Below are positions 12,724 to 15,456 of a DNA stretch of 15,456 bases, piece by piece. This stretch comes from a virus (lineage: Duplodnaviria > Heunggongvirae > Uroviricota > Caudoviricetes). The stretch lies in the IMG/VR virus record IMGVR_UViG_2698536485_000022. One strand, 5' to 3'. The translations under genes and the position numbers were made by a program. Position 1 is the first letter of the stretch; the number at the start of each line of letters is the position of its first letter. The notes beneath the pieces are model-generated. The model was not told the origin of the DNA and made no database searches. It saw only the letters and a list, made by a program, of their open reading frames with translations.

Positions 12724-12740
12724 TTTTGTGGAGAAAGTTG

Positions 12741-13121
12741 ATGCGTGATATTCAGATGGTTCTTGAACGCTGGGGGGCATGGGCGGCAAGTGGTAACACC
12801 GGGGTGGACTATTCTCCGATCGCTGCCGGATTCAAAGGACTTTTACCATCTGCCACTAAACCACGTCCGGCCTGCTGCGATGATGACGGACTTATCATTG
12901 AAAACTGTCTTGCTCGTCTGAAGCAGAAAAAACCTGAGGAGTATTCGCTTCTCATTGCTCATTATTTGTTGCGAATATCAAAAAGACAGATAGCCAGGAC
13001 GAGAAAGAAAAGCGAAAAAGCAATACGAATTGAGATGCAGATAGCCGAAGGGTTTATTGACGGATGTTTGTCTGTGCTGGGGGTAAGACTGGAGATGGAC
13101 GACTGGCTGCTAAAAAAGTAA
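12741..13121 (+). CDS. late-gene antiterminator Q (QuuD/QuuQ type)
   Basis: 126 aa from ATG 12741 with GGAG Shine-Dalgarno (MRDIQMVLERWGAWAA ... AAGFKGLLP ... CCDDDGLIIENCLARLKQ). Followed by a terminator. Confidence 0.75.
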   Translation: MRDIQMVLERWGAWAASGNTGVDYSPIAAGFKGLLPSATKPRPACCDDDGLIIENCLARLKQKKPEEYSLLIAHYLLRISKRQIARTRKKSEKAIRIEMQIAEGFIDGCLSVLGVRLEMDDWLLKK

Positions 13122-13190
13122 AAAATGATTAGTGCGGTCCGCAAAAAGTATGTCAGTATGTTAAGAGTGGTTACTTCGCCACACAGCTTA

Positions 13191-13214
13191 AACCCGCCGC
13201 GAGCGGGTTTTTTT
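13191..13214 (+). terminator. tR'-like intrinsic terminator downstream of Q
   Basis: AACCCGC-cgcga-GCGGGTT followed by seven T. Confidence 0.7.
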
Positions 13215-13336
13215 ATGGCTGAAATCGGTCCAGTACAGTAAACGTGCTGGTGGCGGTGAATACCTGTCTTTCAGCTTGCCGGCTTTTTCGACAAGAGTTA
13301 TTGGTGTGTCACGTTAACCGGAAAAGGGAAAAAGAC

Positions 13337-13871
13337 ATGCTGAAACAGCAGGATATGACAGAAACCGCCAGAGTGGTGTTTAATGAATTAAGCGTCACCG
13401 AACCGGCGACAGTCGGGGAGATTGCGCAGAATACTTACCTTTCACGCGAACGCTGTCAGTTAATACTGACCCAACTATCAGCGGGGTGAACTGGAAAAGC
13501 CACATCACCAACTGGTCAGCACATACAGTGAGCTGAACCGGCAGTATACGGAACTGCTGAGTGAATATAAAAATTTGCGGCGGTATTTCGGTGTGACGGT
13601 GCAGGTGCCGTACACCGATGTGTGGACGTATAAACCGGTGCAGTACTATCCAGGGAAACATCCGTGCGAAAAACCGGCAGAAATGTTGCAGCAGATAATC
13701 AGCGCAAGCAGTCGTCCGGGAGACCTGGTTGCAGATTTCTTCATGGGGTCGGGGTCGACAGTGAAAGCAGCGATGGCGCTGGGACGTCGTGCAACTGGCG
13801 TTGAACTGGAGACTGAACGTTTTGAGCAGACGGTGCGGGAAGTACAGGATTTAATCATTCGTAACGGATGA
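13337..13871 (+). pseudogene. remnant of a DNA methyltransferase gene (N-terminal 50-aa ORF plus out-of-frame C-terminal fragment)
   Basis: ORF 13337-13489 (frame 2) overlaps a frame-0 reading frame open from 13470 to 13871. The latter encodes YYPGKHPCEKPAEMLQQII ... DLVADFFMGSGSTVKAAMALGRRATGVE, typical of the C-terminal part of N4/N6 methyltransferases. No DPPY-type catalytic motif is present. Confidence 0.5.
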
Positions 13872-13911: not shown

Positions 13912-13987
13912 GGCCCTTTAGCTCAGTGGTGAGAGCGAGCGACTCATAATCGCCAGGTCGCTGGTTCAAATCCAGCAAGGGCCACCA
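13912..13987 (+). tRNA. tRNA-Ile (anticodon CAU, ileX/ileZ-like); tRNA-Met not formally excluded
   Basis: 76 nt: GGCCCTT acceptor stem, TAGCTCAGTGG D-arm, anticodon loop CTCATAA (CAT at 13945-13947), T-loop TTCAAAT, 3' ACCA. Close to the E. coli ileX sequence as I recall it. Confidence 0.85.
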
Positions 13988-13988
13988 A

Positions 13989-14054
13989 CCGCCACTAGCT
14001 CATCAGGAAAGAACGTCACCCTGTGCGAGATTCGGAGTCCCCGGTGGCGGTCCA
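13989..14054 (+). other. tRNA-like remnant (7-bp acceptor-type stem plus TCCA tail, no intact anticodon or T arm)
   Basis: CCGCCAC (13989-13995) pairs perfectly with GTGGCGG (14044-14050), followed by TCCA. Interior begins TAGCTCA like a D-arm but is too short (66 nt) to fold as a cloverleaf. Confidence 0.3.
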
Positions 14055-14067
14055 TTATCGGTATTCT

Positions 14068-14144
14068 GCGTTGTTAGCTCAGCCGGACAGAGCAATTGCC
14101 TTCTAAGCAATCGGTCACTGGTTCGAATCCAGTACAACGCACCA
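14068..14144 (+). tRNA. tRNA-Arg (anticodon UCU)
   Basis: 77 nt: acceptor GCGTTGT/ACAACGC, anticodon stem ATTGC/GCAAT with loop CTTCTAA (TCT at 14102-14104), T-arm ACTGG-TTCGAAT-CCAGT, 3' ACCA. Confidence 0.85.
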
Positions 14145-14548
14145 CACCACACTTATCTGCCCTGACTCTCTTTTGCGGGCTTTTTATTACAGGAAAGACA
14201 CCGGACAGTGAAATGTTAAATGCCTCACAATTCAGGCAGTTGACTGTTGCCTGACATGCTGAGCGTTTGTTAAAAAAATCCTGCATGATGAATCCCCCTG
14301 AGCGGCGGGGCATAATGACAGATGTTTGGTTGCGTATTGTATAGGCAAGTTGCGGATTCTGTCTGGTCATTGCAGAATTCACCGGGAGGCACCCGGCATC
14401 ATGCTGTATACAGAGATTAGGCATATATCCAGGCTTCTCATCGCAGGAGCCTTTTTACATGCAAAAAAAAGCCCGAGTGGGTTCGGGCAACAGCATGAGA
14501 TACTTGCATTGTCATTTTTATCGTGTGGATTTTAACCAGGGTTTATAA

Positions 14549-14579
14549 GGCTGCGCAACTGCGCGGCCTTTTTCGTTTT
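14549..14579 (+). terminator. intrinsic terminator upstream of the nanS-p-like gene
   Basis: 8-bp stem GGCTGCGC / GCGCGGCC (one G-U pair), loop AACT, followed by TTTTTCGTTTT. Confidence 0.5.
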
Positions 14580-14667
14580 GCGGGCTGCGGTTCTCCTCTT
14601 TTGATTCTCCTTGTGGCCGGACCGTGGCCCGCAACTGTTGAGGAAAATCCCGGAAAGGGGAGGAATA

Positions 14668-15456
14668 ATGGCATTTAAACACTATGACGTGGTCAGGGCG
14701 GCGTCGCCGTCAGACCTTGCGGAAAAGCTGACACACAAACTGAAAGAGGGCTGGCAGCCGTTTGGTAGTCCGGTGGCCATAACCCCTTATACCCTGATGC
14801 AGGCGATTGCAGCAGAAGGTGATGTGGTGGTCAGTGGGGCAACTGAGCCGGATTGGTACTACGTCATCGTACTGGCCGGGCAGTCCAATGCCATGGCTTA
14901 CGGTGAAGGGCTTCCGCTGCCGGATTCATACGATGCTCCGGATCCGCGCATTAAACAGCTGGCGCGCCGCAGTACAGTGACGCCGGGCGGGACTGCCTGC
15001 AGATATAACGATATTATTCCGGCCGACCACTGCCTGCATGATGTGCAGGATATGAGTACGCTGAATCATCCGAAGGCAGACCTGAGCAAAGGGCAGTACG
15101 GCTGTGTCGGCCAGGGGTTACATATTGCCAAAAAACTGCTCCCGTATATCCCGAATAACGCGGGGATCCTGCTGGTACCATGCTGTCGTGGTGGTTCGGC
15201 ATTTACCCAGGGCGCGGAGGGGACATTCAGTGCGGACACGGGGGCCAGCCAGGATTCGGCGCGCTGGGGTGTGGGTAAACCGTTATATCAGGACCTGATT
15301 GCGCGCACCAAAGCTGCATTACAGAAGAACCCGAAAAATGTGTTGCTGGCGGTGTGCTGGATGCAGGGAGAGTTTGACATGAGCGCCGCCACCCACGCAC
15401 AGCAACCTGCGCTGTTTACAGCCATGCTGATACAGTTTCGTGCTGACCTCTCCGTG
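14668..15456 (+). CDS. NanS-p-like sialate O-acetylesterase (DUF1737-like N-terminus plus SGNH hydrolase), 3' partial
   Basis: ATG 14668 with GGGGAGG Shine-Dalgarno; open to the window end (263 codons, not in the ORF track because it has no stop). Contains VIVLAGQSNAMAY (GQSN esterase motif). Confidence 0.75.
   Translation, partial: MAFKHYDVVRAASPSDLAEKLTHKLKEGWQPFGSPVAITPYTLMQAIAAEGDVVVSGATEPDWYYVIVLAGQSNAMAYGEGLPLPDSYDAPDPRIKQLARRSTVTPGGTACRYNDIIPADHCLHDVQDMSTLNHPKADLSKGQYGCVGQGLHIAKKLLPYIPNNAGILLVPCCRGGSAFTQGAEGTFSADTGASQDSARWGVGKPLYQDLIARTKAALQKNPKNVLLAVCWMQGEFDMSAATHAQQPALFTAMLIQFRADLSV

Follow-up and report, generated by a model that had tools for sequence, protein, structure and literature searches.

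A probable prophage small RNA module of the Stx1-phage type between tRNA-Arg and a nanS-p-like esterase gene

Identification of the interval

What lies between tRNA-Arg and the nanS-p-like esterase gene in a lambdoid prophage that carries no Shiga toxin (Stx) gene there? The question was raised by the caudoviral record IMGVR_UViG_2698536485_000022, analyzed as one stretch of 15,456 nt (the window). The interval from tRNA-Arg to the esterase gene is 523 bp long (14145-14667). An initial annotation, made from the letters of the sequence, placed it at the cargo site between the antiterminator gene Q and nanS-p, considered the stx slot to be filled by hairpins, and suggested an antisense or insulating element.

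The interval is very probably a standard lambdoid (Stx-type) prophage small RNA (sRNA) module, i.e., two convergent and independently terminated sRNA genes. One is an STnc100-family gene on the plus strand (14254-14462), and the other is the EcOnc03 anti-sRNA gene on the minus strand (14463-14523). The element is not new, as this arrangement has been in print since 2014 (PMC4104026). The observation was confirmed and is ordinary, i.e., an already known module rediscovered from raw sequence, for which the annotation is now exact. What the analysis itself established is the identity of the sequence, its family membership, its conservation, and its synteny, whereas transcription, Hfq binding, and the sizes of the RNAs come from published work on sequences that are identical or homologous.

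EcOnc03 anti-sRNA gene

The minus-strand gene was recognized by exact match to a published sequence and by Rfam. The published EcOnc03 sequence (PMC4104026, Fig. S4) is exactly positions 14467-14517 of the window, minus strand, and it was also found without any difference in Sakai Sp9, O111 11128, and Stx1 phage 75/02. The RNA reads 5'-CGAUAAAAAUGACAAUGCAAGUAUCUCAUGCUGUUGCCCGAACCCACUCGGGCU8. The terminator (14463-14488, minus strand) consists of a stem from 14488 to 14471 (GCCCGA/TCGGGC) and a U8 tail from 14470 to 14463, and its fold gave a z of -1.8 against shuffled sequences. The initial annotation had noticed this hairpin and its tail as a terminator for a minus-strand transcript only. By published work on the identical sequence, it terminates a real minus-strand RNA, EcOnc03.

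EcOnc03, an abundant and Hfq-dependent sRNA, was mapped in prophage Sp9 of E. coli O157 Sakai (Tree et al. 2014, PMC4104026). In Sakai, northern bands of 56, ~54, and 51 nt were obtained, and the RNA was destabilised in the delta-hfq background (PMC4104026). The anti-sRNA family is comprised of AgvB1/2, AsxR, and EcOnc03; these RNAs span 51-60 nt, of which the ~42 nt at the 3' side are conserved and the 14-18 nt at the 5' side vary (PMC4104026). AgvB sponges the core sRNA GcvB by blocking its R1 seed, and AsxR destabilises FnrS (Tree et al. 2014, PMC4104026). Convergent sRNAs at the moron site were reported in Sakai Sp3, 4, 5, 9, 10, 11, 15, and 17 (PMC4104026).

The same architecture was found in the window. 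By alignment and allele table, a conserved 3' part of ~42 nt ends in the terminator and follows a variable 5' part, and the allele-specific 5' end occupies 14504-14523 of the minus strand (AAAAAUGACAAUGCAA). The convergent pair lies between the moron site downstream of Q/PR' and a conserved downstream ORF, a layout common to Sp5, Sp9, Sp10, and the Stx1 and Stx2 phages. In a five-way alignment, the STnc100 core and the anti-sRNA 3' part were conserved, the 5' seed was variable, and the promoter/terminator block was invariant.

A putative promoter was assigned at 14524-14558 of the minus strand, with a -10 element TAAAAT (14534 to 14529), a -35 element TTGCGC (14558 to 14553), and an 18-nt spacer. 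Among the matches listed in the survey described below, the -10 block ATTTTAACCAG was invariant in every variant. The 5' ends of AgvB and AsxR (CGAU...) were mapped by RNA ligase-mediated rapid amplification of cDNA ends (RLM-RACE) (PMC4104026). By analogy with them, EcOnc03 would start at the C at 14523, and the distance from the predicted promoter to the terminator would give an RNA of 53-61 nt.

The relation to known loci is close. Compared with EcOnc03/EcOnc3 of Sakai Sp9 (PMC4104026; Waters et al. 2017, PMC5286369), the RNA is identical, the convergent partner is the same, and the neighbours are shared, i.e., truncated or intact methylase, tRNA-Ile, argN remnant, tRNA-Arg, sRNA pair, and esterase. 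However, the host strain, the upstream prophage genes, and the Q allele differ, and the methylase of the window has an 872-bp deletion. AgvB (RF02702; anti-GcvB, of Sp10 and Sp17) has the same position, the same promoter/terminator block, and the same ~42-nt 3' part, whereas the 5' seed of EcOnc03 differs and is without the GcvB-target mimic CACAACA. AsxR (RF02703; anti-FnrS, downstream of stx2B) belongs to the same family, with the same place relative to STnc100 and esterase and the same terminator hairpin sequence. The EcOnc03 seed differs from that of AsxR, FnrS was not among the best predicted partners, and no stx2 is found in the window. EcOnc03 is the anti-sRNA allele of Stx1 phages and their stx-free relatives, and its mode of action would presumably be that of its family.

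STnc100-family sRNA gene

The plus-strand gene (14254-14462) was assigned to STnc100 (RF02076) by Rfam scan, with 175.2 bits against a gathering score of 47 (E 3e-41) and model positions 1-206 of 206 covered. STnc100 matches were likewise obtained in Sp9, one Stx1 phage, and one Stx2a phage. The intrinsic terminator of the gene (14431-14457) is an 8-bp stem at 14431-14452 followed by T5, which folds at -10.6 kcal/mol (z -2.95), and a compensatory change between lineages, C-G/U-A, was observed as covariation in it. The initial annotation missed this 209-nt gene, its terminator stem (14431-14452), and a further hairpin at 14581-14631.

The RNA corresponds to EcOnc28 of Sakai Sp9 and is a homologue of EcOnc27/sRNA103, which lies downstream of stx2. 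EcOnc28 showed a peak in Hfq crosslinking and analysis of cDNA (CRAC); peaks and northerns are given in Table S2 of PMC4104026. Its Sp5 homologue, EcOnc27, is ~235/247 nt (PMC4104026). In strain EDL933, where RNA-seq covered 11 STnc100 copies, such copies are transcribed, and a northern blot confirmed one of them. Several recent papers noted the copy that lies downstream of stx2, and the family is related to PasD. The proposed roles of STnc100, such as up-regulation of fimZ/espA and complementarity to stxB, concern the Stx2-phage copy.

Compared with the known members (RF02076; EcOnc27, EcOnc28, sRNA103), the window copy is alike in its full-length model match and in its place directly downstream of the cargo site, as in Stx2 phages. 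It differs from the Stx-phage copies as an Sp9-type variant of 209 nt with a 12-nt insertion.

Plus-strand terminator and proposed function of the module

The strong plus-strand terminator which the initial annotation had pointed out is present at 14547-14579. Its stem (14547-14570; 10 bp, 7 GC, loop AACT) is followed by the T-rich tail TTTTTCGTTTTG, and the fold reached -18.3 kcal/mol (z -2.86). In every listed locus with enough flank (~110), it was kept at a fixed offset with 88-100% identity. The -35 TTGCGC of the putative EcOnc03 promoter falls inside this stem, so one conserved block would be a promoter on one strand and a terminator on the other. Two independent C-to-T changes in the 3' arm were the usual substitutions of the stem; with them, a G.U pair is kept in the plus-strand RNA only, which argues modestly for a role of the hairpin at the RNA level on the plus strand.

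A GC-rich stem-loop with a U tract right behind it on the transcribed strand was taken as a terminator, and three such sites were found by the terminator scan. The raw number of terminators was not significant, i.e., 5 against 2.8 +/- 1.9 in shuffles; it is homology, and not counts, that shows the features to be real. A hairpin with T5 directly after tRNA-Arg (14159-14180) was rejected as a terminator. Its -6 kcal/mol (z -0.05) was no better than shuffles.

In this reading, the nanS-p esterase gene bounds the module on one side and the cargo site downstream of Q/PR' on the other, with the STnc100 RNA (~210 nt, plus strand) and the EcOnc03 RNA (51-56 nt, minus strand) ending back to back. Family members share the 3' part, i.e., Hfq module and terminator, and differ in a swappable 5' seed. 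In a lysogen, the strong terminator would halt any plus-strand transcription that originates from the tRNAs, from the cargo, or from read-through of STnc100, and would keep it off the esterase and lysis genes; only the Q-modified polymerase would pass. On induction, Q-driven late transcription through the terminator which overlaps the anti-sRNA promoter might switch EcOnc03 off.

The lambda-type tR' with its short PR' RNA (6S, StxS; PMC7547250) is comparable, as both are intrinsic terminators of the late operon through which only the Q-modified polymerase is expected. However, in the window tR' and the StxS-like unit lie ~1.3 kb upstream (13190-13210), whereas the terminators described here are distal and flank separate sRNA genes. 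Of the antisense or insulating element suggested by the initial annotation, the antisense part did not stand, because EcOnc03 is trans-acting and Hfq-dependent by the published family work. The insulating part is plausible, as we infer from the position of the terminator.

Cargo site

The position of the stx slot was determined by phage comparisons. Homology to Stx2a phage L001 covers the tRNAs and the 41-bp post-tRNA segment common to Stx2 phages (14145-14185, plus strand) and ends at 14185. A 1,341 bp stx2 cassette (2660-4000 of L001) replaces 14186-14224 of the window, and the right homology starts at 14225. The cargo (moron/stx) junction is therefore assigned to 14186-14224, i.e., ~39 bp, and is empty. 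In Sakai Sp5 (L006), stx2A and stx2B are found at the equivalent position. Stx1 phage 75/02 is homologous to the window again from 14211 on, 40 bp past the stx1B stop, and Sp10 has a TerB-like gene in the slot. No stx remnant was found in 14186-14224.

The hairpin module is placed downstream of the slot and is present with stx1, stx2, or a TerB-like gene in the slot and also without any cargo there; Stx1 and Stx2 phages have the same sRNA module downstream of stxB. By these comparisons, the true stx slot is far smaller than the ORF-free gap suggests, and it lies upstream of all hairpins of the module. The initial annotation was right that this is the Q-to-nanS-p cargo region and that stx is absent. 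Its picture of hairpins filling the stx slot was not upheld, since the module is found whatever the cargo.

Related loci and allele distribution

IMG/VR was scanned for the anti-sRNA terminator motif, by which at least 120 loci were obtained, or at least 127 with the loci fetched earlier. The allele, spacing, and cargo counts refer to the matches listed (n=127). The EcOnc03 terminator was kept in 127/127, where the loci had been chosen by this very motif. The plus-strand terminator and the esterase start were found at fixed offsets wherever the flank suffices. The distance from tRNA-Arg to the STnc100 core ranged from 138 bp, the state of the window, to 1,546 bp.

Four discrete 5' alleles were recognized, i.e., AgvB (60 loci), EcOnc03 (25 loci), a fourth type beginning with CGAUUAUAAAAAUGUAUA (23 loci), and AsxR (17 loci). 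Two of the 127 loci were left untyped because the sequence ends too near the motif. Cargo linkage was scored within 1.5 kb. The AsxR allele was linked to Stx2 in 13/13, and the EcOnc03 allele to Stx1 in 6 and to no cargo in 17. The AgvB allele was accompanied by a TerB-like gene in 38 and by none in 13, and not by Stx1. The fourth allele (CGAUUAUAAAAAUGUAUAUCUCAUGC...; e.g., L008, L016, and L026) was mostly found with an empty cargo site.

Of 5,426 complete E. coli genomes, 523 (~10%) have the full EcOnc03 gene at >=80% coverage. It was 100% identical in 57 phage records, and 47 of them are named Stx1-converting. By allele and flank, the window carries a Stx1-type sRNA module with an empty cargo site.

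Targets of EcOnc03

The core-sRNA partners were searched by RNAduplex against a partial set of 25 K-12 sRNAs, with energies calculated without accessibility. The positive controls ranked first, with -19.4 kcal/mol for AgvB and GcvB and -8.3 kcal/mol for AsxR and the terminator region of FnrS. The best EcOnc03 duplexes were formed with SgrS (-12.3 kcal/mol) and GcvB (-11.5 kcal/mol), at z values of about 0 to -0.7.

From the seed sequence and the duplex energies, EcOnc03 was rejected as a functional AgvB or AsxR. The consensus of GcvB R1 targets, CACAACA, is absent from CGAUAAAAAUGACAAUGCAAG, so EcOnc03 would not be a functional AgvB despite its borderline Rfam match (AgvB at 14464-14523, minus strand; 56.6 bits against a gathering score of 56).

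In published RNase E-CLASH tables (hybrids sequenced after crosslinking and ligation), ~85 EcOnc3 hybrids are given, with gene ontology (GO) enrichment for cation transport (mntH, fieF, and bfr). This lead was set aside, as the hybrids are mostly single reads and involve the terminator or the conserved part. In the same tables, AgvB1, EcOnc3, and AsxR each have 4-5 hybrids with one site in ECs4425, which is eptB. The shared core GUAUCUCAUGC (14493-14503, minus strand) is perfectly complementary, over 11 nt, to the region of the eptB start codon, located at ~2415-2427 of the Sakai record L144, and the duplex energy was -18.8 kcal/mol. By our own estimate, chance would give an RNA of this size about one 11-mer match at some start codon, so the weight of the lead lies on the CLASH hybrids. 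In the literature searched, no paper discussing anti-sRNA/eptB pairing was found.

It is tentatively proposed, and seems rather doubtful, that the conserved core of EcOnc03 and of all family alleles acts directly on an mRNA, eptB. The eptB pairing is a lead only. If true, the prophage RNAs would be bifunctional. The shared core would turn down the phosphoethanolamine modification of the 3-deoxy-D-manno-octulosonic acid (Kdo) of lipopolysaccharide (LPS), and the swappable 5' seed would add an allele-specific target, with the EcOnc03 seed linked to Stx1 phages. Together with the conserved leader hairpin described below, this lead is the only part of the locus that could yield something new.

Alternative readings of the interval

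Several points weigh against the interval being such a module. The expression evidence comes from other strains, i.e., Sakai and EDL933. The AgvB score barely reaches its threshold, and AsxR (RF02703) stays below its own with 46.8 against 63 bits. The EcOnc03 promoter fits the consensus at 8/12 positions only and was therefore not reported by the promoter scan. The fold of the whole STnc100 region as a single sequence was not better than shuffles (z -0.83), so the identification of STnc100 is carried by the covariance-model match. If the 235/247-nt size in Sp5 applied here, the putative STnc100 5' end would fall at about 14214-14226, where the conserved block has its edge. The conservation of the plus-strand terminator could stem from the overlapping promoter and not from termination. 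No outstanding partner of the EcOnc03 seed was found among the 25 K-12 sRNAs of the partial set by RNAduplex without accessibility; the anti-sRNA label is thus drawn from family analogy only.

The hairpins could instead be bare terminators or insulators without sRNA genes, including a back-to-back bidirectional pair, which shield the esterase and lysis genes and the tRNAs. Three terminator-like sites within 150 bp, i.e., two on the plus and one on the minus strand, would suit such a shield, as would the strong plus-strand terminator, whose position upstream of the esterase is constant in all related loci listed. However, the minus-strand unit is identical to an sRNA validated by northern and RACE and bound by Hfq, a conserved -10 element lies ~60 nt upstream of the minus-strand terminator, and the plus-strand unit fits the full 206-position STnc100 covariance model. 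An allele-specific 5' seed on a conserved body makes no sense for a bare terminator, and this alternative is highly improbable. Slightly less probable still is that the interval codes for one or more small proteins, e.g., from a 19-codon ORF starting at ATG 14284 inside STnc100 or from a 69-aa ORF at 14326-14535. In published ribosome profiling of EDL933, several STnc100 copies have appreciable ribosome coverage, with a ribosome coverage value (RCV) up to 3.2, and ATG 14284 is conserved. However, among the 127 loci listed the ORF from this ATG stops after 11, 13, 17, 19, 23, 25, 28, 66, or 70 codons, and the first 9 residues alone are common and overlap a conserved RNA hairpin. The small ORF in STnc100 (14284-14343) was rejected, as neither its length nor its sequence is conserved. 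The 69-aa plus-strand ORF was likewise rejected, being without Pfam match, as was a 116-aa minus-strand ORF, which runs antisense through the tRNA and has no Pfam match. The larger ORFs thus have no Pfam match, and RefSeq has no coding sequence (CDS) here. The ~520 bp without credible ORF seen by the initial annotation were borne out by the ORF list and the Pfam scan over the 523-bp interval. RefSeq has no CDS in the matching interval of 13E0780, O111 11128, and Sakai Sp9, whose sequences are identical or near-identical. RefSeq leaves the sRNA genes unannotated in the same records.

The reading as a convergent sRNA pair at a cargo site leaves a question of origin, i.e., whether a deletion left the slot empty as a scar. 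In that case the prophage would derive from a Stx1 phage that lost stx1, and not from a lineage that never had cargo. For this, the EcOnc03 allele and the flank from 14211 onward are of the Stx1-phage type, most full-gene phage records are named Stx1-converting (47/57), and homology resumes just 40 bp after the stx1B stop. However, Stx is absent in 17 of the 23 listed EcOnc03-type loci with enough upstream sequence, and the 138-bp spacing from tRNA to STnc100 is found in 16/25 of the listed EcOnc03-type loci. By this Stx-free majority and common spacing, the empty state is a common and stable haplotype. The left flank, i.e., tRNA-Ile, argN remnant, and tRNA-Arg, is of the Sp9/Stx2-phage type and is absent from Stx1 phage 75/02, and the slot has no stx remnant. 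A deletion scar is accordingly considered unlikely, although it keeps some weight; it concerns the origin and leaves the identity of the elements unaffected.

Conserved hairpin in the esterase leader

Directly after the strong plus-strand terminator, a long conserved hairpin was found at 14581-14631 of the plus strand. In the minimum free energy (MFE) fold, it is an interrupted 12-bp stem, in which 14581-14587 pairs with 14625-14631 and 14589-14593 pairs with 14619-14623. In 18 variants examined by RNAalifold and pair counts, 98.5% of the cells were paired, against 17-56% in slid controls. Compensatory changes were detected in two pairs, and a third was seen by eye (C14588-G14624 vs U-A). Several one-sided changes give G.U pairs, and the changes span three lineages. 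The hairpin matches no Rfam family and has no U tract. It may act as a structured leader element in the esterase mRNA.

The right border of the interval is formed by the Shine-Dalgarno sequence GGGGAGGA and ATG 14668 of the nanS-p-like esterase (14657-14670, plus strand), which was assigned by Pfam DUF1737 and SASA.

Genomic context

The gene order in the window is Q, a tR'-like terminator, a methylase fragment, tRNA-Ile, an argN remnant, tRNA-Arg, STnc100 (plus), EcOnc03 (minus), and esterase. By the order of Q, tRNAs, and esterase, the Q-to-nanS-p placement of the initial annotation is correct. A lambdoid prophage of E. coli strain 13E0780, from cattle, matches the whole window with 100% identity, as do several further strains. 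The prophage of 13E0780 adjoins zur and a truncated tRNA-dihydrouridine synthase gene, and its esterase gene is followed by holin, lysozyme, and Rz-type lysis genes. The window and Sakai Sp9 share 98% identity across 1,980 bp.

The Q antiterminator was found at 12726-13121 (plus strand; PF06530 match), and the tR'-like terminator at 13190-13210 (plus strand) by terminator scan. The region at 13158-13214 is 84% identical to the post-Q region of the Stx2a phage, and a weak isrK-like Rfam match (E 0.65) was found downstream of Q at 13122-13215. The post-Q region 13122-13215 is probably a PR'-tR' short RNA of the StxS/6S type. Weak Rfam matches (Leu_leader, Trp_leader, isrK, snoRNA, and miRNA families; E 0.3-1) were treated as chance.

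The DNA methylase is present as a C-terminal fragment at 13575-13871 (plus strand; Pfam PF01555). In the region 13206-13871, ~872 bp are absent compared with Sakai Sp9 (4773-5644 of L004), by which a C-terminal fragment of 98 aa remains. RefSeq flags it as a partial pseudogene.

At the left border, tRNA-Arg (UCU) of the argO type occupies 14068-14144 (plus strand). It was called by ARAGORN and by Rfam (tRNA, 71.4 bits), and it is argO3 in the Sakai Sp9 annotation. The degenerate argN remnant (13988-14058, plus strand) lies between tRNA-Ile and tRNA-Arg and was called by neither ARAGORN nor Rfam. Its anticodon loop was removed by a 12-nt deletion, and the same state is seen in Sakai Sp9. The tRNA at 13912-13987 (plus strand; anticodon CAU) was called Met (CAT) by ARAGORN, whereas RefSeq and the Sakai annotation give Ile (ileZ). 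In tRNA-Ile (ileZ), the CAU anticodon would be lysidine-modified.

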